Below, piece after piece: positions 1,399 through 62,761 of a stretch of DNA of 64,000 nt (the stretch's first letter is position 1; every line of letters starts with the position of its first letter). The notes beneath the pieces were generated by a model. That model was given only the letters and a program-made list of their open reading frames with translations, had not been told where the DNA came from and searched no databases. The DNA is from Dehalococcoidia bacterium. GTDB lineage: Bacteria > Chloroflexota > Dehalococcoidia > JAUSIH01. Location of the stretch: the NCBI GenBank assembly GCA_030648205.1, contig JAUSIH010000046.1, positions 1,370 through 65,369 of the forward strand, read 5' to 3'. The position numbers and the translations under genes are program-made.

Positions 1399-2208
1399 AT
1401 GTCTGAGACGACAAATCCGCGGAGAGACGTGAAGGAGGTCGTTCGCGAGCGGTACGGCGCCCTGGCCCGTTCGGCGGCGAGGACCGGCGCCACCATCACG
1501 CTCACGCCGAAGGAGTCGCAAAGTTGCTGCGGCCCAGCGGCGGCCAAGGGCGACATGGTGCGCGTGAAGGGGCTGTACAGCCATGCGGAGACGGAGGGCC
1601 TGCCCGCCGGAGCGCTGGCCGCCTCCGCGGGCTGCGGCAACCCGCTGGCGCTCGCCGAGGTGAGGCCGGGCGAGACGGTGCTGGACCTCGGCTCCGGCGG
1701 CGGGATTGACTGCCTGCTGGCGGCGCGACGCGTCGGCCCGACGGGCAGGGTCATCGGCATTGACATGACGCCGGACATGATCGCGCTGGCGCGGCGTAAC
1801 GCGGCGGAGGTGAAGGCCACCAACGTGGAGTTCAGGCTGGCGGAGATGGAGAAGATGCCCGTGGACAGCGCGTCCGTGGACCTCGTCATCTCCAACTGCG
1901 TTATCAACCTCTCGCCGGACAAGGACGCCGTCTTCGGGGAGGCGTATCGCGCGCTGAAGCCTGGCGGGCGAGTGCTCATTTCTGATATCGTAACCACCGG
2001 CGAGATTCCCGCCGAGGTCCGCGCCAGCCTCGACGAGTGGTCGCACTGCATCGCGGGCGCGCTGCCGAAGGACGATTATCTGGCGAAGATGCGCGCCGCC
2101 GGCTTCCGCGACGTGGTCGTTGTGGACGAAAAGTCGGTCTCCAACCTGACGGGCTGGCGGATGAATCTGGCGAGCATCAAGGTGCGGGCGGTCAAGGCCT
2201 GCGGCTAG
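1399..2208 (+). CDS. arsM: arsenite S-adenosylmethionine methyltransferase (ArsM-like class I SAM-MTase)
   Basis: SD aggagg lies 6 nt upstream. The protein has LDLGSGGGIDC (SAM-binding motif I), conserved Cys pairs (CCGP...; SNCVINLSPDK) and a length typical of ArsM. It sits immediately downstream of the PadR regulator. Confidence 0.8.
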   Translation: MSETTNPRRDVKEVVRERYGALARSAARTGATITLTPKESQSCCGPAAAKGDMVRVKGLYSHAETEGLPAGALAASAGCGNPLALAEVRPGETVLDLGSGGGIDCLLAARRVGPTGRVIGIDMTPDMIALARRNAAEVKATNVEFRLAEMEKMPVDSASVDLVISNCVINLSPDKDAVFGEAYRALKPGGRVLISDIVTTGEIPAEVRASLDEWSHCIAGALPKDDYLAKMRAAGFRDVVVVDEKSVSNLTGWRMNLASIKVRAVKACG

Positions 2209-2465: not shown

Positions 2466-3482
2466 ATGCGTCCTCAGTTCGGCATCGTCTTTACGCCCGC
2501 ACCTCACGCGGACCTTGTGCGCTGGGCCACGCTCGCCGAGGAGGGCGGCTTCGAGCGGCTGGGCATAGCGGACAGCCCGTCGCTGTACCGGGACGCGTAC
2601 GCGCTGATGGCCGTCATCCTGGCCAAAACGACCCGCATCCACGTCGGGCCGCGCGTGACGAACCCCGTGCTCGTCCACCCCGGCGTCATGGCGAGCACGC
2701 TGGCCTCGCTGTCAGAGCTGTCTGGAGGCCGCGTGTACATGGGCATAGGCACGGGCCACAGCGCGCTCCTGAACGTGGGGTTGAAGCCCGCCAGCCTGGG
2801 CACGCTCCGGAGCTTTGTCCTGGCGGTGCGCTCGCTCCTGACCACGGGCGAGGCGGAATGGCAGGGCAAACATGCGCGGATGACCTGGCGGGCGGACCAG
2901 CCCGTGCCCATCTACGTGGCCGCGGGCGGGCCGAAGTCGCTGGAGATGGCGGGCGAGATCGGGGACGGGGTGATCATCGGCAACGGCATGACGCCTGAGG
3001 TCGTCGCGCACGACATGGCGTGCATCGAGCGCGGCGCGCGGACGTCGGGGCGCGCGCTGCGTGACCTGCACTTGCAGTGGCTGATGGCGGCGTGCGTCGC
3101 CGACGACCCGGAGCAGGCCGGCCGCGAGGCGCGGGCGCAGATGTGCTCCAACGCCCACAGCGTGTTCCAGCACGGGATCGAGGGACAGTTCGTGCCCGCG
3201 CCATTGAAAGAGCGCGTCCAGGCGCTCTCGGATGGGTACATGGTCACCGAGCACGCACGCCCGGGGGAGTCCGCGCACAACGCTCAGCTTGTGGACGAGC
3301 TGGGGCTGCGCGAGTACCTGATAGACCGGTTTGGAATCGTCGGCTCGCCGGAGCGGTGCGTGGAGCGCATCAAGGAGTTGCAGCACCGGGGAATCAACGC
3401 GTTCTGGATGAGCGTGCACACCACGGAGAAGGAGAGGGTTATCCGGCTTCTGTCGGAGAAGGTGCTGCCGCACTTCCTGTAG
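2466..3482 (+). CDS. LLM-class (luciferase-like) F420/flavin-dependent oxidoreductase, paralog 1
   Basis: 338-aa TIM-barrel LLM signature (GIADSPSLYRD, GIGTGHSA, GGPKSLEMAGEIGDGVIIG). This is the same family as the genes at 6603-7664 and 14329-15369. Confidence 0.8.
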   Translation: MRPQFGIVFTPAPHADLVRWATLAEEGGFERLGIADSPSLYRDAYALMAVILAKTTRIHVGPRVTNPVLVHPGVMASTLASLSELSGGRVYMGIGTGHSALLNVGLKPASLGTLRSFVLAVRSLLTTGEAEWQGKHARMTWRADQPVPIYVAAGGPKSLEMAGEIGDGVIIGNGMTPEVVAHDMACIERGARTSGRALRDLHLQWLMAACVADDPEQAGREARAQMCSNAHSVFQHGIEGQFVPAPLKERVQALSDGYMVTEHARPGESAHNAQLVDELGLREYLIDRFGIVGSPERCVERIKELQHRGINAFWMSVHTTEKERVIRLLSEKVLPHFL

Positions 3483-3610
3483 TCAGCAGTCCTGCCTGCA
3501 TTGCTTCCGCCGCCACGGCAGGGGTGAACGTTCCAGGACCCTCACCCAGCTTTGCACAGAAAGTGCCGTCTGCACAAAAAGGCAGCAGGCTGAACAAAAA
3601 GTCCAGTCTT

Positions 3611-5308
3611 TCAAATCTTGCTAGGCCAAGTCTCGACAGCAAGTTTTGCTAGGCGATTCTGTCGCTCTTTAATTTCCTTAGCGCCCCAAGATGCGCATTG
3701 GGCTGCCTCAATCGTCAGGGTAAACGTAGAATCTTGAAGTACGGGTCCCTTTTCCTTGTACGGGCTATTCCCGATCATAGAGTTTTTCTTCGCTTGCAAA
3801 ATGACCATATTCCCAAGCCGTTTGTAATAGGCGGCGGCGGTTTCACTATCAATATCCGGCCATTCGTTTCCAGGATGTTCAGGCAGAATATGTTCAAGGT
3901 TGATTGCCTGCTCCTCATCTTGCGGAACCCACTCTGGTTCGGGTTCCTTTTTCAGATATAGTTCCATCGCACGTAGGTAGTACCGCGCCAAGTAGACGTG
4001 GGACACTCTCGCTTCCGAAAAGGCAGTCTCAAAGAGCGCATCTGTAGGAACGACATCTGACATTTTAGCCGCCAGTTCCTTCGCCGTCTTGATTTTCCTG
4101 GTTCCAACATCTTGGGCGCGAAGCGCATAGTTCCGGTCAAGAAGTCCACCACGTCCACCAACAATCAAAAATCGTACTGACCAATAGACAAAGAGTCGGA
4201 ACGCATCCTGTGCCTCTTTAATTGAGAAGTAGCGAGCGACAGCGAACATGAGTGGGCGAATCTGCTCTACGCGAAGGTCACGATTGATGGTAGAAATATG
4301 TTTCCGCGTTCTGGTTCCGTATTGGTTCCATTTGGTATGGTCAGAGTTGTACAACGCGGCGTAGTCATTTGCCGCCTCTGCAACCTCACTGAGAAAAGTA
4401 AGCGCGCGGCTCTGGCTATCCACTGTCTGCCGAACCTTGTCAAAGACCTCTTGGCCTCTAGTTGGACCAGTCTTGGTAATCATGAAATGATGCAAGAATA
4501 TGACTGTAACATCATCTTGCCCTAGCGATTCAAGGACACCCACCATCTTTGCCCAATGCTGTTGAGCCTCATTTATGCGATCCCCTGCGTAACTCAACAG
4601 GTGGTTCTTCAGCAAGTCAGCTTGGGATGCTTTGAGACCACGGTCGTTGAGGGTTTCAAACATCATGAAAGCGTTCAAATGATCGGGTACACGGAGCACG
4701 ATGACTTGCGCTCCGGTGCGCACGAACTTAACCCATTCGAGCAACCGCGTTGTTTTCGCGGAGGGAGTATAAGGGTCCAAAATTTTTTGAATGTGCTTGG
4801 CAGCTATTTCACTCGCCAACTTGATACGCTTGTGGGATTCCTTCATGGGGGCAACCCCTCGTACAGGGTCATCAGGATTCGCCAGAATGAAATTCGAGAA
4901 GAACTCGTTATCGTCAACGTTCAAGCGAAGCTTAGGGACAATTGCCGTAGTGTTGATGTCCGTTGTCTTCAGGAAGTCATTCTCAATTGATTGGGCACGG
5001 GCAGCATCCTTATTCCAGTGGAAGTAGTCCCGAATGGCTGCCAAGAGGATCGTAGATGTCGCAAGTCGTTGTTGACCATCCGAAACCTCTGGAACCTCTC
5101 CCGCTCCCTTAGTTAGAACGATGGTTCCGAGAAAATAGCTGGCCTTGTTGTTAGCTATCGCATTCGCAAAGTCTTGGAGAAGGTCAGTGACATGATCTTC
5201 CTCCCATGAGTACTCTCGCTGGTTCAACGGAACGGCAAGGCGGTTGTGGGCCAAGACCTCTCCAATCCCCTTATACTCAAATCCAATTTCTTCCGTCGTA
5301 ATATGCAT
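3611..5308 (-). CDS. DUF262 (ParB-like nuclease, DGQQR motif) / DUF1524 (His-Me finger) fusion: GmrSD-family type IV (modification-dependent) restriction endonuclease-like defence protein
   Basis: The N-terminal region has NQREYSW and DGQQRL motifs. The C-terminal region has EHILP...GNMVIL, the DUF1524 His-Me finger. The gene sits in a ~2.3-kb segment of clearly lower GC than its flanks. Confidence 0.8.
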   Translation of the reverse strand: MHITTEEIGFEYKGIGEVLAHNRLAVPLNQREYSWEEDHVTDLLQDFANAIANNKASYFLGTIVLTKGAGEVPEVSDGQQRLATSTILLAAIRDYFHWNKDAARAQSIENDFLKTTDINTTAIVPKLRLNVDDNEFFSNFILANPDDPVRGVAPMKESHKRIKLASEIAAKHIQKILDPYTPSAKTTRLLEWVKFVRTGAQVIVLRVPDHLNAFMMFETLNDRGLKASQADLLKNHLLSYAGDRINEAQQHWAKMVGVLESLGQDDVTVIFLHHFMITKTGPTRGQEVFDKVRQTVDSQSRALTFLSEVAEAANDYAALYNSDHTKWNQYGTRTRKHISTINRDLRVEQIRPLMFAVARYFSIKEAQDAFRLFVYWSVRFLIVGGRGGLLDRNYALRAQDVGTRKIKTAKELAAKMSDVVPTDALFETAFSEARVSHVYLARYYLRAMELYLKKEPEPEWVPQDEEQAINLEHILPEHPGNEWPDIDSETAAAYYKRLGNMVILQAKKNSMIGNSPYKEKGPVLQDSTFTLTIEAAQCASWGAKEIKERQNRLAKLAVETWPSKI

Positions 5309-6602: not shown

Positions 6603-7664
6603 CTATGTGCGGGCGGCCCGGGCGGTGGCCCTGGGCGGCTCCTTGATGTAGGGCAGCACCTTCTCCCCGATGCCCTTGATGAAGCCCAGCGGGTCATGGG
6701 AGTAGATGCCAAAGTGGATCTTCTTGACGCCCATGTTGACCAGGCCCTGTATCTTCTCGATGAAGTACTCGGGCGGGCCGATGATGGTGAAGCGGTCGGC
6801 CAGATAGTCGCGCAGGCCCAACTCGTCCACCAGTTCCGCGTTGCGCCTGTTGGCGCCCAGGCTCTCGTGTTCATGGAAGACGTACTGCTGCTGGAGCTTG
6901 AGGATGCGCGGCTTCACCTCCTCCGGGATCATCTTGTTCTCCAGAGTGAAGCGGAAGGCGTGATTGGCGCTGGCGGCGAGGGTCATGCGGGACTCCAGCA
7001 GGCCGTCCTCGCGCCGATTGCACAGGTTCGCCTTGACGAACCACCAGATGTCCAGGTCCTCCAGCTTGCGCCCGGCCTCCTCCGCGCCCTCCCGGATATG
7101 CCGCAGGGAGTCGGCGACGACCTCCGGCAGAATGCCCGTGCCCACCGCCACGCCGTCGGCGATGCGTCCGGCCAGGCGGAGCGCCTTCGGCCCCTCGCCG
7201 GTGACGTGGATGGGCACCGGGCGCTTGGCCCACGTGAGGCGGCATGTCCGGCCCTGCCACGTGCCCTCGCCCTTGCGGTAGAGGTCCTGCATGCAGCGCA
7301 CGTACTCTTCCAGGACGGCCAGAGTGGAGCCTTTGTACCCCAGGTTATACACGGCGCTGTCGCCCGTGGAGATGGCGAAGTAGGCCCGCCCGCCGGACAG
7401 CTCGTCAATGCTCGCCATGCCGCTGGCGGACACGGCGGGGTGCCGGGTCAGCGGGTTGCTGACGAGCGGCCCGATGAGCACCTTCTTTGTGTTGACCGCC
7501 ATGAGGGTCAGGGCCACGTACAGTTCCCGCGCCAGGGACTGGCTGTCCGCCGCGCCCACGCGGGTGAAGCCGTTGGCCTCCGCCAACTGGGCGCGCTGGA
7601 TGATGATGTCGGGGCTTTGGACGCTGACGCCGTGGGCCATGCAACCGAGCTGGACTGCTGGCAT
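6603..7664 (-). CDS. LLM-class F420/flavin-dependent oxidoreductase, paralog 2
   Basis: 353-aa LLM TIM-barrel signature (GAADSQSLARELYV, AISTGDSAV, GEGPKALRLAGRIADGVAVG). Confidence 0.8.
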   Translation of the reverse strand: MPAVQLGCMAHGVSVQSPDIIIQRAQLAEANGFTRVGAADSQSLARELYVALTLMAVNTKKVLIGPLVSNPLTRHPAVSASGMASIDELSGGRAYFAISTGDSAVYNLGYKGSTLAVLEEYVRCMQDLYRKGEGTWQGRTCRLTWAKRPVPIHVTGEGPKALRLAGRIADGVAVGTGILPEVVADSLRHIREGAEEAGRKLEDLDIWWFVKANLCNRREDGLLESRMTLAASANHAFRFTLENKMIPEEVKPRILKLQQQYVFHEHESLGANRRNAELVDELGLRDYLADRFTIIGPPEYFIEKIQGLVNMGVKKIHFGIYSHDPLGFIKGIGEKVLPYIKEPPRATARAART

Positions 7665-14328: not shown

Positions 14329-15369
14329 CTACCTGGCGACCGCGGGGTTCTTGACGCGCTGGATGACCTTGCCCATGGCCTCCAGGAACTGGGGACGCCG
14401 CGCCACGGCCACCGGGCAGCGGAAGAACATCTGGGTGGCGCCCGCCTTGATGCCGCGCTGTATCTGCTCGACGCACTGGTCCGGCGCGCCGGCCACGGCG
14501 AAACGGTTTGCGAGCCACTCCTTCATGCCGGACTGCTCCACCAGCATGGCGTTGTTGTCCACGCCGGCGCTGATGATATTGTGCTCGTGGGCGGCGTACG
14601 CGCTCTGTATCTTCGTGATGGCCGCGTGGAATTCCTTCGGCACGAACTTGCCCTCCAGGGTGAAGCGGAACCCGTGGTTGACGCTTGAGCAGAGGGAGGC
14701 GCGGATTTCGTTGACGGCGGCCTCGCGGCTCTCATGCACGTTGCCTTTGACCAGCCACCAGATGTCCACGTCCTCTATCCGGCGACCCGCCTCTTTCGCG
14801 CCCGCCGCCACCTGCTCACGGAAGTGATGGACCACCTCCGGCGTGATGCCCGCGCCGATGACGACGCCGTCGGCAATCTTGCCGGCGAGCCGCGCCGTCT
14901 TGGGGCCGTCCGCCGCCAGGTAGATGGGCATTTGCTCCTTGGACCAGGCGACGCGGCCCGTGCTGCTCTGCCATTCGACCGCTTCGCCGCGGAAGAGGGC
15001 GCGCAGGGCGTGCACGTAGCGCTCCATGTCGGCCAGGCTCGCGGGGCGCATCTTGAGGTTCTGCAGGGCGCTGTCGCCGGAGCCGAAGCCGAGCGCGACG
15101 CGGTTCCCGAACATACGCCGCAGGGTGCCCACGGCGCTGACGGTCACCGCGGGGTGCCGCGTCCACGGGTTGGTGACCCAGGGCGCGACCATCTTGCCCT
15201 TGGTGTTCAAAAGGCAGTGGGTCATGAGGACGTACAGCTCGCCGTAGACGGACTGCGAGTCCGGCACGCCAACGAAGTCGAAGGGCTGCTGGTCAATGAT
15301 GCGGACGGTGTGGACGTAGTCCTCCGGTGTGTCCCCCCAGGAGATGATGCCGAACTTCGCGTTTGCCAC
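14329..15369 (-). CDS. LLM-class F420/flavin-dependent oxidoreductase, paralog 3
   Basis: 346-aa LLM signature (GVPDSQSVYGELYV, GFGSGDSAL, ADGPKTARLAGKIADGVVIG). Confidence 0.8.
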   Translation of the reverse strand: MANAKFGIISWGDTPEDYVHTVRIIDQQPFDFVGVPDSQSVYGELYVLMTHCLLNTKGKMVAPWVTNPWTRHPAVTVSAVGTLRRMFGNRVALGFGSGDSALQNLKMRPASLADMERYVHALRALFRGEAVEWQSSTGRVAWSKEQMPIYLAADGPKTARLAGKIADGVVIGAGITPEVVHHFREQVAAGAKEAGRRIEDVDIWWLVKGNVHESREAAVNEIRASLCSSVNHGFRFTLEGKFVPKEFHAAITKIQSAYAAHEHNIISAGVDNNAMLVEQSGMKEWLANRFAVAGAPDQCVEQIQRGIKAGATQMFFRCPVAVARRPQFLEAMGKVIQRVKNPAVAR

Positions 15370-30138: not shown

Positions 30139-30660
30139 GTGACTCTACAGTCGTTCCTGTCCACGTCCCTGAAGGAGCTGCATCAGTGTCTGGACGACGC
30201 CACCAGAGGGCTGACGTCGGAGCAGCTCCACTGGCGGCCCGGGGGTCGGGTGAACCACATCGGATTCACGCTCTGGCACTACGCACGCACGCAGGACAAC
30301 GTCATCCGATTCGTCGTTCAACGCCGGCCCACCATCTGGATGGAGGGCGGATGGGACAAGCGGTTCGGCCTGGACTCCAAGTCCCAAGGAACGGGCATGA
30401 GCCAGGAGGACGCCTTCAAGCTCCGCATCAACTCGCTCGACGACTTCCGTACGTATATGCGCCAGGTCTTCAAGGAGACCGAGGCCTACGTCGCGAACGT
30501 CCAGGAGGCGGAGCTGGAGCGCATGCTGCTGGTCAAGCCGCTCGGGGAGATGCCTGTGCGACAGGTGCTGGGCAGGCCCGTTGTGACCCACGGCTTCGGC
30601 CACCTGGGGGAGATATACACCATCCGCAGTGCGATGGGCATGCCGGGGAACCCCATCTAG
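30139..30660 (+). CDS. DinB/YfiT-like (DinB_2) four-helix-bundle metal-dependent protein
   Basis: A GTG start at 30139 with the SD aaggagacg avoids overlap with the upstream gene. The protein has HIGFTLWHYARTQD and a C-terminal HGFGHLGEIYTIR, both DinB_2-type His motifs. Confidence 0.65.
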   Translation: MTLQSFLSTSLKELHQCLDDATRGLTSEQLHWRPGGRVNHIGFTLWHYARTQDNVIRFVVQRRPTIWMEGGWDKRFGLDSKSQGTGMSQEDAFKLRINSLDDFRTYMRQVFKETEAYVANVQEAELERMLLVKPLGEMPVRQVLGRPVVTHGFGHLGEIYTIRSAMGMPGNPI

Positions 30661-30768
30661 CGGGGCGCGCCGGGCTGCTCAGACGCTTGACGGAAGTCTG
30701 TTGCCGCGCTAGAGTCTGAAACGTTGGAAGGGACAGCCGTCCGCTTCCACGGGTGAAAGGAGGCTCCT

Positions 30769-31380
30769 ATGGCCGTAGCCACAACCATCCGCATGAAGTC
30801 GCCCGTCGCCAGTGCGCCGGACACCAGGAACCGCCTCGCGCCGCTCGTGGACGACGTGCGCGGCAAGGCAGCCGGTTTCCGCGTCCAGTGGAGCAGCTTC
30901 GACGTGTTCATGAAACGCTTTGAGGAGCTGCTGATGGAGCGCAAGCAGCCGCGGTCCGTCCATATCATGGACCAGAACTGGGAGTCTCCCGCCGTCATCA
31001 AGAAGGGCCTCAAGATGAATTACGCGGACCCGGGCTGGGCCAAAGAGTGGGACGAGTTCGCCAAGAACGCGGACTGGGCGGTGGTTGGGTTGGCGGCCTG
31101 AGGCGGCTGCACCTCGTGGAGTATCCACGACACGGTCGAAGCCCAGAAGCGCGGCATCCCGACTGTGACCATCGTCACCGAGCAGTTCGTCAGCCTCGCC
31201 AAGAGCGTCGCGAAGTCCATGGGCTATCCCGACCTGCCGATGGTGGTCGTCCCGCACCCGTTCGAGACCCTTTCTCACGACACGATCCGCAAGATCGCGG
31301 AAGAGAAGTACGACGAGATTCTCTCCAAGGTGCAGAAGGCCAAGGAAGTGCGCGTGCCCGCCCAGGGCGCGGCCTCGTAG
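30769..31380 (+). CDS. putative selenoprotein with a UxxC redox motif (UGSC-family-like); in-frame TGA at 31099-31101 read as Sec
   Basis: ORFs 30769-31101 and 31165-31380 are in the same frame, joined only by the TGA. The joined product reads ...WAVVGLAA-U-GGCTSWSIHDTVEAQKRGIPTVTIVTEQ.... A hairpin tcgtgga-gta-tccacga begins 13 nt after the TGA. Confidence 0.6.
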
Positions 31381-31390
31381 CTCGAACGTC

Positions 31391-32452
31391 ATGACTACTG
31401 AGTACATCGAGGTCGAAAACGACATAGACAAGGCGTTTCAGGCCGCGTACGAGCAGGGCTGGACGGACGGTCTGCCCGTCATTCCGCCCACGGAGCAGCG
31501 CGTGGCGGCCATGCTGGCGACGGTGGACCGTAAGCCGAGCGACGTCATCGGCCTGCTACCGCCCCGGAACGGGCAGGCTATCGTCGAGAAGGTGGCGGTC
31601 AGCGCGGTCATGGCGGGATGTCTGCCGTCCTATTTCCCCGTGGTGGTGGCGGCCATCGAAGCCGCCGCCGACCCCGCGGTCTATCTGCGCGGCATCAACT
31701 CCACCACGAACCCGGTGGCGCCTTTGCTGATCATCAACGGGCCTATCCGCAAGGAGATTGAGGTCAACTGTAGCTGGAGCGTGATGGGGCCGGGGCCACG
31801 CGCCAACGCCACCATCGGGCGCGCGTTCAGCCTGTGCATGATCAACATCGCGGGGCGCATCCCCGGCGAGGTCACGAAGTCCACGCACGCATCGCCGGGG
31901 CGCTACACGTGGTGCATCGGCGAGTACGAGGAGAAAAGCCCGTGGGAGCCGCTGCACGTGGAGCGCGGCTTCAAGAAGGAGGACAGCACAGTCACGCTGC
32001 TCGCTCCGACGGGCCACATCAACGCGCTGGACATGCTGGGCCAGACCGGCGACGAAATCCTGACCATGATCACGTCGTGCCTCAGCCTGATGGCGAGCAA
32101 CAACTTCTTCAACCGCTACGGCGAGGGCGACATGGGCGTCATCCTCTGCCCGGCGCACGCGGACATCATCAAACGCGACATCGGCGGCAAGCAGAAGGCG
32201 AAGGAAGCGCTGCTGGAGAAGACGAGCCGATGGATTCGGATGGCGGACATTCCGCCGCATCTCAAGGCGGCCGTTGAAGGGCTGAACCCTGGCTCGAAGC
32301 AGATCGAGGGCGAGTTCGCCCGGCTGGCGGCCCGCGCCGACCAGTTCGTGCTGGTGGTCGCGGGCGGCCTCGGCGGGTATCACTCCGTGGCGCTGCCCAC
32401 GTTCGGCGGGCCGCAGACCATCACGTGGGCCATCAAGGCGAAGAAGCGGTAG
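31391..32452 (+). CDS. conserved hypothetical protein (353 aa), probably co-transcribed with the upstream UxxC selenoprotein; its 3' end is duplicated ~1.2 kb downstream
   Basis: The ATG lies 11 bp after the selenoprotein stop. No confident family assignment from sequence. The C-terminal ...ARLAARADQFVLVVAGGLGGYHSVALPTFGGPQTITWAIKAKKR is duplicated at 33492-33638. Confidence 0.55.
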   Translation: MTTEYIEVENDIDKAFQAAYEQGWTDGLPVIPPTEQRVAAMLATVDRKPSDVIGLLPPRNGQAIVEKVAVSAVMAGCLPSYFPVVVAAIEAAADPAVYLRGINSTTNPVAPLLIINGPIRKEIEVNCSWSVMGPGPRANATIGRAFSLCMINIAGRIPGEVTKSTHASPGRYTWCIGEYEEKSPWEPLHVERGFKKEDSTVTLLAPTGHINALDMLGQTGDEILTMITSCLSLMASNNFFNRYGEGDMGVILCPAHADIIKRDIGGKQKAKEALLEKTSRWIRMADIPPHLKAAVEGLNPGSKQIEGEFARLAARADQFVLVVAGGLGGYHSVALPTFGGPQTITWAIKAKKR

Positions 32453-32690
32453 GGCCGTCCGGTCAGAGCGGCCTGACTCCAGAGGCGCCAGCACCAAAAC
32501 GGGGTGGCCCGAACTAGAAGGGGCCACCCCGTTTCTCTTTGACATGGCGGAACGATTGCCTATTGGGAGTCGCCTTGCGGCTTGAGGCCCCTGTGGTGGG
32601 TTCTCTGGACAGCACTCGAACCTGCTACGGCCTGACCTTGTGCCGCAGGCTGAGGCGACTGCTAAACATGAAGTAAGAGCTCACGCACCG
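32302..32690. repeat. direct repeat copy A (~380 bp): the 3' end of gene 31391-32452 plus ~240 bp downstream
   Basis: ggctggcggcccgcgccgaccagttcgtgct...aaggcgaagaagcggtag...ggtcagagcggcctgactccaga[g]gcgccagcaccaaaacgggg... is repeated at 33492-33850 at ~85-90% identity. Confidence 0.7.
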
Positions 32691-32740
32691 TGGCGTTGAT
32701 GCAACGGCCTACCATGTGGTTGCCACGCGCCGACAGCCCT

Positions 32741-33208
32741 CTACGCCAGTTGCAGTCCGAGAAAATACGTTCGGTAGTACCCACGGTCTCTGGTCAGCAG
32801 TCGGTCAGCATGGAGGGTAGCATGGGCACCGATGAGGAAATCGGCCACGACGTGTTGGCGTGGGATGAGATGTGCTCCACACCTCGCGCAGTGAATGTCC
32901 TGTGAAGTTCCACAGGAAGGGCAAACCAGGGAATCTGGCCGCCGGCGCAGGTACTCGCGCCATGCCTTGCCTGCCAGGTAGAGGGCCTCGGTGCCCGAGG
33001 GCTGTAGTCGGATACCGGTATCTTCCAGGAACCGGTCCAGTTCCTCACGAGCGGGGAAATGGGGAGACAGCTCCGCGTAAACGGCTTCGGAGACGACCGT
33101 CGCGCCAGCTCTAAGGGACTCGGTCAGGGCCTGCTCTGAGGCGTCTCCGTGCGGAGCACCAGGGACAAGGACGTCCAGGAGGATGTTCGTGTCCACCGCA
33201 GTGATCAC
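32741..33208 (-). CDS. VapC-family PIN-domain toxin with an inserted CxxC...CxxC zinc-ribbon
   Basis: MITAVDTNILLDVL (PIN acidic residues) and a C-terminal ...DFLIGAHA. The inserted segment is CPSCGTSQDIHCARCG. It overlaps vapB by 4 bp. Confidence 0.7.
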   Translation of the reverse strand: MITAVDTNILLDVLVPGAPHGDASEQALTESLRAGATVVSEAVYAELSPHFPAREELDRFLEDTGIRLQPSGTEALYLAGKAWREYLRRRPDSLVCPSCGTSQDIHCARCGAHLIPRQHVVADFLIGAHATLHADRLLTRDRGYYRTYFLGLQLA

Positions 33209-33444
33209 TGCCCGCGCATCTCCTTGACAAGCTCGTCGGGATCCTGCTCCGTCAGGTTTTTCAGGTAGCCCCTATACTTTTTGAGCGGAGCGGGAGGGAG
33301 GCGCTTCCTGAGGCGGAACACGCCATCTTCCTCCATGAATTCCAGTTTGTCTCCTGGCCGGAGCCCCATGCGCTCGCGGACCTCTTTGGGGATGGTCACC
33401 TGTCCTTTGGTGGTAATCCTCGTCATAGCCATGTCTGCCCTCAC
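33205..33444 (-). CDS. AbrB/MazE/SpoVT-family antitoxin (VapB-like)
   Basis: RITTKGQVTIPKEVRERMGLRPGDKLEFMEEDGVFRLRK matches the swapped-hairpin beta-barrel signature. Confidence 0.7.
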   Translation of the reverse strand: MRADMAMTRITTKGQVTIPKEVRERMGLRPGDKLEFMEEDGVFRLRKRLPPAPLKKYRGYLKNLTEQDPDELVKEMRGQ

Positions 33445-33491: not shown

Positions 33492-33850
33492 ATGCAACTG
33501 GCATCGAGGCTGGCGGCCCGCGCCGACCAGTTCGTGCTCGTGGTCGCGGGCGGCCTCGGCGGGTATCACTCCGTGGCGCTGCCGACGTTCGGCGGGCCGC
33601 AGACCATCACGCGGGTGATCAAGGCGAAGAAGCGGTAGTGCCATCTGGTCAGAGCGGCCTGACTCCAGAGTCGCCAGCACCAAAACGGGGGGCCTATTTA
33701 GCTTAGGCCGCCCCGTTTCTCGTTGCCGTGTCGGAAAGATTGGCTATTGGGAATCGCCTCGCGGCTCGAGTCCCCTGTGGTGGGCGTCAGGGGACAGTGC
33801 TCGAACTTTCTGCAGTCTGAGTTGGCGGCTGGGGGCGGCTGCTGGCTACA
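33492..33850. repeat. direct repeat copy B (~360 bp), a diverged duplicate of 32302-32690 that includes a 3' fragment of gene 31391-32452
   Basis: It encodes ...QLASRLAARADQFVLVVAGGLGGYHSVALPTFGGPQTITRVIKAKKR* in the + frame. It carries a 13-bp deletion relative to copy A and ends 2 bp before the stop of the low-GC gene at 33853. Confidence 0.7.
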
Positions 33851-42379: not shown

Positions 42380-42600
42380 TGGTAGACGCGGTGGACGGCA
42401 CTAGACGGCACTAGGCAATACTAGACGATGCGAGACAGTGGTAGACAGTGATACACAGTGATGCATGGTGATATACGGTGATACATGGTGATACACGGTG
42501 ATGCATGGTGATGCACGGTAAGGCACCGAGACGCACAGCGGTAGACAGTGCAATAGTCGCGAATCTGGTGAACGGGGTCACGACAGCGGCAATGGCGGGG
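42380..42600. repeat. array of ~20 degenerate 10-bp tandem units (RGTGATRYAY / ctagacggca-like), i.e. helical-period repeats
   Basis: ...agtgatacac agtgatgcat ggtgatatac ggtgatacat ggtgatacac ggtgatgcat ggtgatgcac ggtaaggcac... Confidence 0.6.
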
Positions 42601-42816: not shown

Positions 42817-43443
42817 ATGTCTGAGACTATCGCGTTCGACGTGTACTGCGACTACACCTGACCCTACGTGCACACGGCGGCCGTCTGGCTCGCCGATGTC
42901 CGGAAGGCGCTGGGCGACCGTTTGGTGGTCACCTGGCGCTACTTCTCGCTGGAGCAGGTGAACAGCCAGGAGGGGCCTGAGTGGAAGCTGTGGGATCAGC
43001 CGGACTCGTACCATAGCAAGGGTCGCCTGGCGTTCCACGCCGCGGAGTCGGCCCGCCGTCAGGGGCCGGACGCCTTTGAGCGTCTGCACATGGGGCTTCT
43101 GAAGGCGAGGCACGAGGATGGCAAGAGCCTGGCGGAGCGCGCGGTGGTGCTGGACGTGGCGCAGCGCGCGGGGCTGGACACGGCCCGCCTGGAGAGAGAC
43201 CTGGGCGACCGCTTGCTGCTGCGACGCCTGGGGGAGGACCACACGCACGCGGTGGAGAAGTACGGCGTCTTTGGTACGCCCACGCTGGTCTTCGCCAACG
43301 GCGGCGCCGCGTACCTGAAACTGCGGCCCGCGCCGCCGGCCCAGGACGCGTTGCGCGTGTTTGAGAACCTTCACCAGTTCATCGCCGGATGGCCCTTCAT
43401 CGTCGAGGTGAAGCGGCCCACGCCGGGCGCACGGCCTCGGTAA
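42817..43443 (+). CDS. DsbA / kappa-GST / HCCA-isomerase-like thioredoxin-fold protein with an in-frame TGA (42859-42861) at the active-site nucleophile position: putative selenoprotein
   Basis: ATG at 42817 with a strong SD aggagg 6 nt upstream. The product reads MSETIAFDVYCDYT-U-PYVHTAAVWLADV..., continuous with ORF 42868-43443. U-P-Y aligns with the C-P-W-C / S-P-Y-S catalytic motif of the family. A hairpin acgg-cgg-ccgt begins 13 nt after the TGA. Confidence 0.6.
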
Positions 43444-48905: not shown

Positions 48906-51272
48906 GTGACCTCCCTCGCAGTCTGGTGGCTTACCGCCCTGCTCCTGGGGCTTGCCGCCTTTCCGCTCGCCTTCGCCCTGTTCGCCCGCCTGCACGACCG
49001 AGGGTACGGGTTGTCCAAGGCGCTGTCCCTCCTCCTCGTCGGGTACGCGGTGTGGCTGATGGGCTACTCCGGCGTGCCCATGCTCCGTCTCACCATCGTC
49101 CTGATGGTGGGCGTCCTCGTCATGGCGGGCGGCTACGCGGCGTACCGGCAGAGGCGGGAGCTGCGCGCCTTTCTGACCGCCGAGTGGCCGTCGCTCCTGG
49201 CGATGGAGGGAGTCTTCCTCCTGACCTTCGCTCTGTGGGGCGCGGTGCGGTTCTACGATCCGCACATCAGCGGCACCGAGAAGCCCATGGACTTCGGCTT
49301 CATGAACGCGGCGCTCCGCAGCGAGCGCTTCCCGCCCCAGGACATGTGGCTGTCCGGCTTCTCCATCAGCTACTACTACTTCGGCTACGTCATCATGGCG
49401 ATGGTGACGCGGCTGACGGATGTGCCTTCCGCGGAGGGCTACAACCTCGCGCTGGCGCTCATACCGGCGCTGGTGGCCAGTGGGACGTGCGGCATCGTGT
49501 TCAGCCTGGTGCGCGGGAGCGGCGGCAGCCGGCGTCGCGCGATAGCCTTCGGCGCGCTGGGCGTCGTCCTTTTCATATTCATCAGCAACCTGGCCGGGGC
49601 GCTGGAGTTTGTGCGCGCTCGCGGTCTGGGCGCCGTGGAGTTCTGGCGCTGGATCGGCATCAAGGGGCTTGAGGTCCCCGCTGCAACCCCTTTGTGGGCG
49701 CCGCGCGACTTCTGGTGGTGGTGGCGCTCCACGCGGCTGATAGACACCGTGGCGAACGGCCAGAGCCTGGACTACACCATCACCGAGTTCCCGTCCTTCA
49801 GCTTCCTGCTCGGCGACATGCACCCGCACGTGATGGCGTTGCCCTTCGGGCTGCTCGTGGTGGGCCTTGCGCTGAATCTGCTGCGAGGTGGCATTGGACC
49901 CCGATGCATCGGGGCGGGCGAGGCGACGCTCAGTGTGGACGGGCTGGCGCGGCGGCCCTTCGTGCTGCTGGCGATGTGCCTGGCGATCGGCGCGATGGGC
50001 TTTCTGAATAGCTGGGACATGCCGGCTTACGGCGCCGTCTTCGCGATAGCCGCCCTGCTGCACGGCCACCTGCTCCGCGATACGCCGGGTGTGGCGCTGC
50101 CACGCATCATCGGGGGCGTGGCGCTGGTCTTTCTGGGGGCCATCGTCCTGTACCTGCCGTTCTATCTGCACTTCAGCAGCCAGGCGTCCGGCATTCTTCC
50201 TGTGCGCGGCCCGGGCACCCGGCTCCTGCATTACATGCTGTTCTGGGGCGTCCTTCTGTTCTTGGGCGCGAGCCTGCTTGCCCGACGCGCGTGGGAGGCG
50301 TGGCGCGAGAGGCCGGCCCCGTGGCGCGAGCTGCGGCTTTACCTGCTGGCCGCCTTCGGTCTCTTTCTCGTGTGGATTCCCGTGGAGTTCGTGCTGTCCG
50401 TGCTGGACAGCCGCACCAACTCGGGGATATGGGGCGCCATCCTCTCGCGTTTTATCAACGTCCTGCCCATGTCGCTGCTCGTGGCGGCGGGCATCTTCGC
50501 CCTCGTGCCCCGCACGGCGGGGCGGCGGGAGCGGCGCGACGACCTCTTTGCGCTGACGCTGGTCACTCTGGGTTTCGGCCTGACGCTTGTCCCGGAGCTG
50601 TTCTTCCTGAAGGACTTCTTCGGGTCGCGCATGAACACCATGTTCAAGGTGTACTATCAGGCCTGGGCGCTGCTGGCCGTCGGGTCGGCGTACGCGCTCC
50701 ACACGCTGACCGGGCCGCATGGCTTCCGCGGGCCCGCAACGAAATACGTGTGGACGGGCGCCGGCATCCTGCTGCTGGCGGCCAGTCTCTACTACCCGGC
50801 CACGGCCATTCCGGACAAAACGCGCAGCTTCAGCGGCGCGCCTACGCTGGACGGCATCGCCTTCGTCCGCGACCGGCAGCCCGCGGAGTACGAGGCCATC
50901 GCCTGGCTGCAGCGCAACGTCCAGGGCACGCCCGTCATCCTGGAGGCGGTGGGGGATGACTACACCGAGTTCGGACGCATCTCGGGGCGCACCGGCCTGC
51001 CGACTCTTCTGGCCTGGCCCGGCCATGAGCTTCAGTGGCGCGGGTCGGCGGCCCCGCAGACGGGTCGGCGTGAGGCCGTGGATGAGATTTACAAGACGCA
51101 GGACCCGGCGCGGGCGCGGGAGTTGCTGGCGCAATATAACGTGCAGTACGTTTACGTCGGCGCGCCGGAGCGCCGCGTGTACGGAGAAACAGGCCTCGCC
51201 AAGTTCGATACCTTCATGGACCGCGCATGGGAAAAAGACGAGGTGGTCATCTACCGTGCGCGAGGTAGATAG
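48906..51272 (+). CDS. Chlor_Arch_YYY / DUF2298 family large polytopic membrane protein (GT-C-like glycosyltransferase candidate)
   Basis: 788 aa with 20+ TM segments and a literal SISYYYFGY motif, the TIGR03662-type signature restricted to Chloroflexi and Archaea. A large C-terminal extracytoplasmic domain follows. Confidence 0.8.
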   Translation: MTSLAVWWLTALLLGLAAFPLAFALFARLHDRGYGLSKALSLLLVGYAVWLMGYSGVPMLRLTIVLMVGVLVMAGGYAAYRQRRELRAFLTAEWPSLLAMEGVFLLTFALWGAVRFYDPHISGTEKPMDFGFMNAALRSERFPPQDMWLSGFSISYYYFGYVIMAMVTRLTDVPSAEGYNLALALIPALVASGTCGIVFSLVRGSGGSRRRAIAFGALGVVLFIFISNLAGALEFVRARGLGAVEFWRWIGIKGLEVPAATPLWAPRDFWWWWRSTRLIDTVANGQSLDYTITEFPSFSFLLGDMHPHVMALPFGLLVVGLALNLLRGGIGPRCIGAGEATLSVDGLARRPFVLLAMCLAIGAMGFLNSWDMPAYGAVFAIAALLHGHLLRDTPGVALPRIIGGVALVFLGAIVLYLPFYLHFSSQASGILPVRGPGTRLLHYMLFWGVLLFLGASLLARRAWEAWRERPAPWRELRLYLLAAFGLFLVWIPVEFVLSVLDSRTNSGIWGAILSRFINVLPMSLLVAAGIFALVPRTAGRRERRDDLFALTLVTLGFGLTLVPELFFLKDFFGSRMNTMFKVYYQAWALLAVGSAYALHTLTGPHGFRGPATKYVWTGAGILLLAASLYYPATAIPDKTRSFSGAPTLDGIAFVRDRQPAEYEAIAWLQRNVQGTPVILEAVGDDYTEFGRISGRTGLPTLLAWPGHELQWRGSAAPQTGRREAVDEIYKTQDPARARELLAQYNVQYVYVGAPERRVYGETGLAKFDTFMDRAWEKDEVVIYRARGR

Positions 51273-60010: not shown

Positions 60011-62761
60011 ATGACCCAGCAGCAGAGCAAGCTGGTTACCCTCACCGTTGACGGTGTCGAGGTCAAGGTGCCGCCGGGGACCACTATCCTGGAAGCGGCC
60101 AAGCAGGTGGGCATCAACATACCGTACCTGTGCTACCACCCCATGCTCAAGCCCTACGGCGCTTGTCGCATGTGCGTGGTGGAGGTGGAGAAGCAGCGCG
60201 GTCAGCCTGCCTCCTGCACCTCGCCTGTCTCCGAGGGCATGATGGTCAAGACCAACACTCCGGACGTGCAAAAGACGCGCAATGACATCATGGACCTTGT
60301 CCTGTCCGAGCACCCCCACGGCTGTCTCACATGCTGGCGCGTGATTCACTGCGGGCCGGAGGACATCTGCCTGCGCAACGTCAGCGTCATTGATCGGTGC
60401 GTCATCTGCCCCAAGAACTATCGCTGCGAGCTTCAGTTCATGGCCTGGGACTTCAAGGCGAAGGACACGCCCCTGGGCTATCACTACCGCAACATCCCGC
60501 TGTGGAACAAGAATCCCCTCATCGACCACGACATGAACCTGTGCATCGTCTGCGGGCGCTGCGTCCGCGCCTGCAACGAGATAGAGGGCGTGGACGCCAT
60601 CGTCTTCATCCAGCGGGGCGGCAGGACCATCGTGGGCACGTCGCAGGCCGGCAGTCTGGCGGAGTCCGGCTGCACCTTCTGCGGCGCGTGCGTGGACGTC
60701 TGTCCCGTGGGCGCTATCGTGGAGAAGGACAGCAAGTGGGCCGGCCCGGCGCGGCGCACCGCCACGACGATATGTCCGCATTGCCCTGTGGGCTGCCAGC
60801 TCGGCGTGGGCCTGGACAAGGACGGCAAGATCATCCGTGTCATGCCTGACCTGGACGGCCCCGTGAACCGGGGCCACGCCTGCGCTTGGGGGAAGTTCGG
60901 CATCGTGGACTACGTGCACAGCAAAGATCGGCTGACGACTCCGCTTGTCCGCAAGGACGGTCAGCTTGTGCCCGCCACATGGGACGAGGCGCTGGAGGCC
61001 GCGGCCAGGGCCTTCGCCTCCCACACGGGAAGCGAGGTCGGAGTCGTCGCTTCGCCGCGCTCCACCAACGAGGACCTGTTCGTCCTGCAGAAGTGGGCGC
61101 GGGTCGTCGCGCTGACTAACAACATTGACCATACTGACCACATGTTCCTGCCCAGCTCGCCGCAGGGCATCTCCAGGGCCCTCGGCGGCGCGCAGATGAC
61201 GGGGAACTGGCAGGACATTGAGAAAGCAACCTGCCTCCTGGCCGTGGGCGCGGACCTGATGGCGGACCAGCCGGTCATCGGGGCGCGTGTGCGCAAGGCG
61301 GTCCAGCGTGGCCAGAAGCTCATCGTCGTGGACCCGCGCCGCACCGAGTCGGCGCTGCTCTCCACTGTGTGGCTCCGGAACAGGCCCGGCACAGAGGTGG
61401 CCGTCCTGGGCGGCATCATGCGCGTCCTCCTGGACGAGCGCCTGTGGAACGCGGCGTACGTGGAGCAGAGGTGCGAGGACTTCGCTGTCGTGCAGAAGGC
61501 GGTCGCCGCTTTCGACCTGGACACCGTCGAGAAGACAACGGGCGTGCCGAAGGCCCACATTGAGCTGGCGGCGCGCCTGCTGGCGAAAGCCAGCCCTCCG
61601 TGCATCGTCTATTCCGCGCGCACGAATTTGCCCGGTCACGACACGGACATAGCGGCGGCGCTGGCGGACATGGCCCTGCTCACCGGCGCCATCGGCCGGC
61701 CGGGCGGAGGGCTGAACATCATGCGCCGCGAGGCGAACGGACAGGGCGCCACGGACATGGGATGCGTGCCTATCGCCCTGCCCGGCTCCGGGCATCTGGA
61801 CGACGTGGCTGCGCGCACTCCGTTCGAGCGGGTGTGGGGCAAGGCCCTGCCCAGTCAGCCGGGGTTTTTCGTTCGGGATATGCTGGCCGCCGCGCGCCAG
61901 GGTAGCCTGAAGGCCATGCTCGTCGTGGGGAACGGCGACCTGGCGGCCCGCTACGCCGCCTACGGAGCGGAGGAAGCGCTGCGGTCGCTGAAGGCGCTGG
62001 TGGTGGTGGACATGGCGATGACGGATATGGCCCGGCGGGCGGACGTCGTTCTGCCCGCGGCCTCGTTCGCCGAAGCGGACGGCAGCTATACCAACGTGGA
62101 ACGGCGTATCCAGCGGCTGCGCAAGGTCCTGGACGCGCCCGGGCAGGCCAAGCCTGCCTGGTGGATTATCGCCAAGCTGGCGGAGAAGGCCGGCGCTCAG
62201 GGGTTCGACTATCACGCGCCCGTTGATGTGCTGAAGGAGATCACCGGCCTGGTCCCCACCTACGAGGGCGTCACCTACGCGGGCATCGAGCGGGGCGGCC
62301 TCCAGTGGCCGGTCGCCGGAGCGCGACACGCAGGCACACCCATCCTCCATACCGAGACGTTCTCGCGCGGCAAGGGCCGCTTCCAGCCGTTCCAGCACAA
62401 GGCGCCGCAAGCGCCGCTCGCGGACGGACGCCTGACCGTGATGACGGCGCTCATGCGTGAGATTGCGGGCGTGCGGGAGCTGAAGCACAGGAACCTGGCG
62501 GAGGTGCACCCGGAGGACGCCGCGGCCCTTAAGCTTGTGGAAGGGGACCTGGTGGCTGTTCAGACCCCCGCGGGCGTCGTTGAGGCCCATATCAGGGTGA
62601 CGGCCGAGGCGGCCAGAGGCTATGTGATGCTGAGCCTCTCCATGGGCGATGTGGAGCCGCCAGCCATCCTCTCCCAGCCCGTCGGCAACCCTGCCGCGGC
62701 TCTTGCGGATATCGTCGTTGCGCACGTGGCGCTGGAAAAAGCGGCGGCGCCCGTGGTATAA
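60011..62761 (+). CDS. NAD-dependent formate dehydrogenase alpha subunit-like molybdopterin oxidoreductase (NuoG-type N-terminal Fe-S domains plus Mo-bisPGD catalytic domain; Cys-type, not Sec-type)
   Basis: N-terminal 2Fe-2S (CYHPMLKPYGACRMC), 4Fe-4S clusters (CIVCGRCVRAC; CTFCGACVDVCP) and CPHCPVGCQ. The catalytic region RGHACAWGKFG has Cys at the Sec/Cys position, and the MopB and C-terminal molybdopterin-binding domains complete the protein. Confidence 0.85.
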   Translation: MTQQQSKLVTLTVDGVEVKVPPGTTILEAAKQVGINIPYLCYHPMLKPYGACRMCVVEVEKQRGQPASCTSPVSEGMMVKTNTPDVQKTRNDIMDLVLSEHPHGCLTCWRVIHCGPEDICLRNVSVIDRCVICPKNYRCELQFMAWDFKAKDTPLGYHYRNIPLWNKNPLIDHDMNLCIVCGRCVRACNEIEGVDAIVFIQRGGRTIVGTSQAGSLAESGCTFCGACVDVCPVGAIVEKDSKWAGPARRTATTICPHCPVGCQLGVGLDKDGKIIRVMPDLDGPVNRGHACAWGKFGIVDYVHSKDRLTTPLVRKDGQLVPATWDEALEAAARAFASHTGSEVGVVASPRSTNEDLFVLQKWARVVALTNNIDHTDHMFLPSSPQGISRALGGAQMTGNWQDIEKATCLLAVGADLMADQPVIGARVRKAVQRGQKLIVVDPRRTESALLSTVWLRNRPGTEVAVLGGIMRVLLDERLWNAAYVEQRCEDFAVVQKAVAAFDLDTVEKTTGVPKAHIELAARLLAKASPPCIVYSARTNLPGHDTDIAAALADMALLTGAIGRPGGGLNIMRREANGQGATDMGCVPIALPGSGHLDDVAARTPFERVWGKALPSQPGFFVRDMLAAARQGSLKAMLVVGNGDLAARYAAYGAEEALRSLKALVVVDMAMTDMARRADVVLPAASFAEADGSYTNVERRIQRLRKVLDAPGQAKPAWWIIAKLAEKAGAQGFDYHAPVDVLKEITGLVPTYEGVTYAGIERGGLQWPVAGARHAGTPILHTETFSRGKGRFQPFQHKAPQAPLADGRLTVMTALMREIAGVRELKHRNLAEVHPEDAAALKLVEGDLVAVQTPAGVVEAHIRVTAEAARGYVMLSLSMGDVEPPAILSQPVGNPAAALADIVVAHVALEKAAAPVV

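Follow-up and report, generated by a model that had tools for sequence, protein, structure and literature searches.

A UGSC-family gene with an in-frame UGA very probably read as selenocysteine, and its partner gene, in a Dehalococcoidia bacterium

Does the TGA codon at positions 31099-31101 end a small gene, or does it encode selenocysteine (Sec) within a larger one? The question arises in a 64-kb stretch of Dehalococcoidia DNA, which was analysed at its full length and is referred to here as the window. An open reading frame of 110 aa (30769-31101, plus strand) ends at this TGA, and the same frame is open on to a TAG at 31378-31380. An earlier note, made from the letters of the sequence, described two same-frame ORFs parted by the TGA alone and proposed that their joined reading, with a UxxC motif, is a candidate UGSC-family-like selenoprotein. 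The gene structure was found to be as described, since the frame is otherwise open to the TAG. The joined product has 203 aa with U as residue 111 (...DWAVVGLAA-U-GGCTSWSIHDTV...), and the motif at Sec111 is U-G-G-C, the Sec being followed by GGCTSWSIHD. The same note had expected standard gene callers to split the locus, and they do so in every public record examined. These split annotations agree with an alternative, that the TGA is a true stop parting two small genes (110 aa and ~71 aa) or marking a gene inactivated by a nonsense mutation.

The composition and setting of the frame give a first indication. GC3 is 0.90 on either side of the TGA, and in a six-frame scan of the window for stops, in which ordinary adjacent-gene junctions and antisense shadow frames were set aside, TGA 31099 was the sole in-frame stop flanked on both sides by long coding-like sequence. 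On the same strand, a Shine-Dalgarno sequence, GGAGG, can be read at 30759-30763, 5 nt before the ATG at 30769. Further upstream, in the intergenic region, a sigma-70-like promoter candidate lies at 30687-30715 (TTGACG, 17 nt, TAGAGT); this is a match to the consensus, found once in 30400-32800 where shuffles give 0.2 matches. Downstream, a gene for a 353-aa protein (31391-32452, plus strand; MDO8531635.1, hypothetical protein) begins 10 nt after the TAG and is referred to below as the partner gene.

The fate of the TGA among homologs bears directly on the question. Homologous loci were drawn from Logan and ENA assemblies, JGI metagenomes and GTDB genomes; a scan of contigs with an N-terminal pattern gave none, and a scan with a broader alignment gave 11. 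When the 110-aa N-terminal ORF was used unaltered as the query of an exhaustive HMMER search, 37 cluster representatives were returned, 30 of which stop at ...GL[AGC][AG], the residue preceding the TGA of the window. At the aligned site, 41 homologous copies of the gene, 31-97% identical, all have TGA and none has TAA or TAG; G-[SAGTN]-C comes next. The TGA-bearing copies come from Chloroflexota, Burkholderiaceae, Actinomycetota, Deltaproteobacteria MAGs and metagenomes, thus spanning at least four phyla; named carriers of the Sec form include Burkholderiaceae, Actinophytocola, and Chloroflexi and Deltaproteobacteria MAGs. Homologs with Cys at the aligned position, for which the earlier note had advised looking, also exist. 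The site carries TGC or TGT in seven loci (Thermoflexus, several Dehalococcoidia and loci L046/L047), and the full-length relatives P0026 (...GLAA-CGSC-TAW) and P0017 (...GLGT-CWGT-APW) have Cys there as well. These Cys-form homologs are single unbroken genes. The in-frame UGA thus stands opposite the Cys of homologs with conserved coding sequence on both sides, as in a Sec/Cys pair.

The segment beyond the TGA, on whose conservation in frame the earlier note had made its proposal depend, is indeed kept in frame. Against a 97%-identical metagenomic locus (L005), the window has 14 synonymous and 4 non-synonymous differences over the 80 codons 3' of the TGA, and among distant homologs frame 0 downstream of the TGA is 64-72% conserved, as opposed to 38-55% in frames 1 and 2. 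Judged from these substitutions, the downstream frame is under purifying selection, and this selection begins directly after the TGA, well ahead of any possible restart codon. A true stop is difficult to reconcile with these observations: the same TGA recurs in 41 diverged copies and is never replaced by TAA or TAG, a single Pfam domain and a single predicted alpha/beta domain extend over it, the Cys-form homologs run through the site, and selection acts before translation could restart. Conservation across phyla would likewise not be expected of a pseudogene. Even with the split annotations, and with the Sec machinery not found in the 64-kb window (see below), termination at this codon is therefore considered highly improbable.

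The TGA might also be a mistake of assembly or sequencing, with TGC or TGT as the true codon. MAG sequence can contain errors, and a single base separates TGA from either Cys codon. An independent Logan assembly (L002), however, encodes an identical 110-aa ORF with the same end, followed by the same UGSC fragment and the partner gene, and this identical end rules out a sequencing error. In addition, L005 and L006, which are 97% identical and come from other metagenomes, carry TGA at the site, as do all other Sec-form loci. An error at this position is scarcely credible.

The joined product can be placed in a known family. With U replaced by C, it scores 112.4 bits with PF24696 (UGSC family), whose cutoff is 25, and residues 82-188 fall on profile positions 64-170 of 172, so that the match extends across residue 111. 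The corresponding NCBIfam equivalog, NF041046 (UGSC_fam), gives 95 bits, under its 125-bit cutoff; it matches all 21 members of the subfamily, with a best E-value of 3e-30, likewise below the cutoff. The Sec forms all keep UxxC and do not all keep Ser, their motifs being UGSC, UGAC, UGGC, UGTC and UGNC, and the Cys forms have CGSC or CWGT. By these profile matches, the predicted protein is a divergent UGxC subfamily member of the Pfam UGSC family and not a member of the NCBIfam equivalog. The first mention of a UGSC-containing protein dates from 2007 (Zhang & Gladyshev, PMC1976440). UGSC was among the most abundant selenoprotein families of the Global Ocean Sampling data, with 255 Sec and 21 Cys forms (Zhang & Gladyshev 2008, PMC2398784), and the same 2008 paper describes UGSC fused to a conserved unknown domain, 'Unknown_1' (PMC2398784). 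The family is also listed in a 2026 review (PMC13188914). The feature thus belongs to a known kind, and the novelty of the window gene is limited accordingly. A PDB sequence search with the UGSC profile gave no match, and a word-indexed search of proteins, for which the joined product and the Cys form P0026 served as queries, gave one match besides the query itself.

If UGA 31099 is decoded as Sec, a SECIS element is expected shortly downstream. An inverted repeat, UCGUGGA-GUA-UCCACGA, lies at 31114-31130 on the plus strand and begins 13 nt past the TGA, exactly where the earlier note had placed a hairpin. It can form a 7-bp stem with an apical GUA closed by an A-U pair, and the loop contains G23 and U24, numbered from the U of UGA. 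According to published criteria, bacterial SECIS (bSECIS) elements have a loop of 3-9 nt, a stem of 4-16 bp and a G in the first two loop positions (PMC13188914), with a spacing of 16-37 nt and an MFE of -7.5 kcal/mol or lower (PMC13188914); the loop is usually N1-G-[G/U]-N-N2 with N1 and N2 paired (PMC13188914). The hairpin of the window agrees in all four respects, having the loop GUA, a stem of 7 bp, a spacing of 19 nt and an energy of -8.4 kcal/mol, the last calculated for the bulge-free upper stem alone. Stability by itself is unremarkable: the 42-nt fold has -16.2 kcal/mol with z = -1.84, and 11 of 200 shuffles are equally stable. The z-score was consequently dropped as uninformative, and the evidence for the hairpin is comparative rather than thermodynamic. 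In Rfam, searched to E-values as high as 10, neither 31099 nor a second in-frame TGA at 42859 gave a credible match, whether to SECIS or to any other model.

The comparative evidence comes from a gapless alignment of 21 distinct 48-nt segments beginning at the UGA. Five core pairs join columns 17-21 to columns 27-31 and hold in 104 of 105 cells; three of them have changed on both sides. One of the pairs, 18-30, in which both columns are third-codon positions, occurs as G-C, U-A, U-G, C-G and G-U. For the 8-bp helix the covariation score is 0.229, as opposed to 0.077 in shuffles (none of 500 reaching the observed value) and at most 0.088 in slid registers. The apical loop reads [A/U]-G-U-[A/G]-U in 24 of 26 distinct Sec-form segments, and the other two have GU two positions later. 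Among five distinct Cys-form segments, none has GU at columns 23-24, their loops being ACCGU, ACGGU or GCGGU. U24 is invariant in the 21-sequence alignment, where it closes either AGU (Ser) or UGU (Cys). The genes that carry it have a GC3 of 0.82 and elsewhere prefer the alternative codons (AGC to AGT 107:24, TGC to TGT 46:13), and its retention at a third-codon position against this bias indicates that it is held at the RNA level. The stem is less telling. As a control, Cys-form genes were found still able to form 4-5 of the 5 core pairs, so that stem complementarity derives in part from the conserved Trp and Val/Ile-His/Tyr-Asp codons or is a relic; stem conservation alone was downgraded as proof of a SECIS element for this reason. 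As read from these alignments, it is the GU loop and the covariation at wobble positions that are specific to Sec forms. Together with the agreement with the bSECIS criteria, they bear out the proposal of a hairpin at the bacterial SECIS position.

By analogy with the known bacterial mechanism, UGA 31099 would be read as selenocysteine and not as a stop, with SelB-GTP carrying Sec-tRNA(Sec) binding the apical GU of the hairpin and delivering Sec at the codon. Genes for tRNA-Sec, selA, selB and selD were not found within the 64-kb window, where a single tRNA (Gly) is encoded. This result may also suit the possibility that a standard amino acid is inserted at the UGA, whether under a reassigned code or by SECIS-independent near-cognate suppression with Trp, Cys or Gly. 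Code reassignment was considered and ruled out, because TGA is the ordinary stop of many well-supported genes of the window and only two in-frame TGAs were found in the 64 kb. Moreover, the codon aligns with the redox Cys of a documented selenoprotein family, and a SECIS-type hairpin with an apical GU is seen in the TGA forms and not in the Cys forms. Insertion of a standard amino acid is thus judged very unlikely. Taken together, the PF24696 match, the conserved TGA, the Sec/Cys pairs and the SECIS-type hairpin support the earlier proposal of a UGSC-family selenoprotein, and TGA 31099 is very probably the selenocysteine codon within one gene of 203 residues (30769-31380, plus strand).

The second in-frame TGA lies at 42859-42861 in a DSBA-domain gene (42817-43443, plus strand), which is a candidate selenoprotein gene with the motif D-Y-T-U-P. 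The gene matches PF01323 at 45 bits and an Rv2466c-like profile at 30.7 bits, and AGGAGG precedes its ATG. DxxUP is the motif listed for DsbA-like selenoprotein form 2 (PMC13188914). A hairpin at 42872-42899 has its loop, GUCU, 21 nt after the UGA. The earlier note had reported a hairpin here at an offset identical to that of the first site; the hairpin is present, and its offset is similar rather than identical, starting at +14 with the loop at +25 to +28, as compared with +16 and +23 to +25 at the 31099 site. In the intergenic region upstream of this DsbA-like gene, positions 42448-42519 hold a tandem repeat of 7.2 copies of the 10-nt unit GTGATACACG, which was also scored as a 20-nt unit. 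Two further genes of the window belong to families that have selenoprotein variants and are themselves uninterrupted and free of in-frame TGA codons: a formate-dehydrogenase-alpha-like molybdopterin oxidoreductase (60011-62758, plus strand) and an arsenite methyltransferase (1399-2205, plus strand).

What the restored protein may do can be approached from its predicted fold. The UxxC motif had been likened to those of thioredoxin-fold selenoproteins. This likeness did not hold up in the structure prediction, which gives a single flavodoxin/Rossmann-like alpha/beta domain of five strands; it was modelled on the Cys-form relative P0026 (38% identical) with fragment rows and a thin alignment of the C-terminal half. 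A thioredoxin fold with the redox motif at the N-terminus of helix 1 was not obtained; in the model, U-G-G-C is located where the third beta-strand passes into a helix, so that a product terminated at the UGA would be two strands short of the five. The UxxC motif, its placement and a weak homology to the Sec region of GrdB/PrdB suggest that Sec111 and Cys114 most likely alternate between a selenol/thiol and a selenenylsulfide form. This homology was seen with the GrdB-family profile (TIGR01917/TIGR01918), which gives 19.8 bits against a cutoff of 602 and does not align over its full length; residues 92-199 align to positions 326-427 of 431 in the selenoprotein B profile. Weak matches to the GrdB family recur in 9 of the 21 subfamily members, with a best E-value of 4.5e-6. 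GrdA, the GrdE/PrdA pyruvoyl proprotein and GrdC/D were not found among 67 flanking genes of 23 loci, nor in L048/L049.

The neighborhood of the gene provides a second line of evidence. The family of the partner gene counts at least 7,767 proteins, which are annotated as 'hypothetical' and have no Pfam domain; a PDB sequence search gave no solved homolog, and the protein has an invariant Cys in an NAVMAGC motif. UGSC and partner genes are adjacent across phyla at 31-97% identity, in Sec and Cys forms alike, and their stop and start codons often overlap or nearly abut. When partner homologs were chosen without regard to UGSC, UGSC was still directly upstream. In-frame fusions of the two genes occur in both the Cys and the Sec lineages. 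A Sec-form fusion of 548 aa (L049:13451-15094, Chloroflexi GCA_016190665.1) has its in-frame TGA at L049:13751, and Cys-form fusions of 514 aa occur in Dehalococcoidia (L043:3004-4548 and L045). The L049 locus holds three UGSC-partner modules within 17 kb. In another metagenome, a 74-aa ORF (P0004) joins UGSC residues ~30-83 to the last ~20 residues of the partner, and this chimera looks like a deletion remnant of the module. The only exceptions to synteny are two Sec-form loci (L022/L025, on contigs Ga0082335 and JGI1356J14229) that are without a partner homolog downstream of UGSC; they have a 314-aa ORF 181 nt downstream, and it does not match the partner.

Beyond the pair, the flanking genes vary widely among loci. 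They include LLM/F420 oxidoreductases, family-III CoA-transferases, MmgE/PrpD, solute-binding transport proteins, and xanthine-dehydrogenase-type and aldehyde:ferredoxin oxidoreductases, and from these neighbors the module appears to form part of varied operons for catabolic oxidoreductases and transport. Such variability, along with the two loci that have no partner match downstream, would suit a free-standing thiol/selenol oxidoreductase whose adjacency to the 353-aa gene is without functional meaning. That view accounts poorly for an adjacency that persists across phyla in Sec and Cys forms alike, in many cases with codons that overlap or nearly abut, for the UGSC found directly upstream of independently picked partners, and for fusions that arose in both lineages; it is regarded as unlikely. 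Synteny and fusion suggest instead that UGSC and its partner are co-transcribed and act together, in some genomes as one polypeptide, and the invariant Cys of the partner plausibly mediates this joint action. As a whole, the locus is best explained, with good confidence, as a UGSC selenoprotein with Sec at UGA 31099 that works with the product of 31391-32452. The pairing with a large unannotated family is near-obligate and is less known than UGSC itself. A more speculative possibility, offered tentatively, is that the two proteins are subunits of an undescribed selenium-dependent enzyme that is related to Grd/Prd through its Sec subunit only, with the partner contributing the substrate site and a resolving Cys.

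Several other features of the window lie near the pair or recall its surroundings. A vapBC-type pair on the minus strand (PIN toxin 32741-33208, MazE/AbrB antitoxin 33205-33444) sits between direct copies at 32322-32600 and 33508-33784 (95% and 80% identical), each made up of the final ~130 bp of the partner gene and ~150 bp of the spacer downstream. A remnant ORF at 33504-33635 corresponds to partner residues 310-353. These copies could stem from an insertion that brought a long duplication with it, or be what is left of a second module. The window also encodes three paralogous F420-dependent LLM-class oxidoreductases (2466-3479, 6603-7661 and 14329-15366) and a 'chlor_Arch_YYY' domain protein (48906-51269), which are consistent with a Chloroflexota origin; LLM genes recur beside UGSC modules at other loci. 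Several proteins of the window have identical GenBank entries in a Dehalococcoidia MAG with the locus-tag prefix Q7T26_. In a crude gene call, no ORF of high GC3 was seen at ~3600-5300. A GmrSD-type (type IV restriction-like) gene on a short contig from the same sample (L050:1273-2916) adjoins the LLM oxidoreductase gene 2466-3479, which suggests that ~3600-5300 holds a compositionally atypical, possibly acquired gene.

The correct reading of this locus restores a complete redox domain, and dozens of homologs are likewise split or truncated by standard gene callers. UGSC has been counted among the most abundant aquatic selenoprotein families since 2007-2008 and is still without a function. To this the present analysis adds a corrected fold, a loop signature specific to Sec forms, and a near-obligate pairing with a family that is large and unannotated. 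The functional hypotheses are narrowed by this pairing, by the occasional fusion, by a fold other than that of thioredoxin and by the faint resemblance to GrdB/PrdB; of these, the pairing is the most promising lead to UGSC function. The two-subunit enzyme, if it is real, would be the first functional handle on a selenoprotein family abundant in aquatic metagenomes. BSepDB records Dehalococcoidia MAGs with 46-49 selenoproteins; this record and the second Sec-type TGA of the window lend indirect support to a Sec-decoding genome. The finding is a further sign that Dehalococcoidia make use of selenocysteine.

The locus can finally be set beside the systems that it resembles. It is like the UGSC family in its UxxC site, its size of ~200 aa and the excess of Sec over Cys forms; it differs in its motif, U-G-G-C where the family has U-G-S-C, and in its modelled flavodoxin/Rossmann-like fold, the literature having guessed a thioredoxin-like one. 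The DSBA-domain gene, which is separate from UGSC, resembles DsbA-like selenoprotein form 2 (PF01323) in having TGA 42859 within D-Y-T-U-P. The hairpin at 31114-31130 is like bSECIS elements, including that of E. coli fdhF, in lying in coding sequence right after the UGA and in its 7-bp upper stem, and it shares with the bSECIS consensus the small N1-G-U-N-N2 loop, the 19 nt from UGA to loop and an energy below -7.5 kcal/mol. The fdhF element has a bulged U in its stem that the window hairpin is without, and the two sequences are otherwise unrelated. G23 and U24 of the window hairpin are as far from the U of UGA as the SelB-contacting G23 and U24 are in fdhF. With GrdB, GrdF, GrdH and PrdB the similarity is weak and recurrent, between the Sec half of UGSC and roughly the C-terminal 100 residues of GrdB, in which the Sec of the GrdB family itself lies. 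Scores remain far under the cutoffs, only this C-terminal part aligns, and the 353-aa partner has no detectable similarity to Grd/Prd subunits. The GrdB family offers a parallel of organization, a UxxC-type selenoprotein that works with a second, larger subunit, as UGSC and its partner may do.
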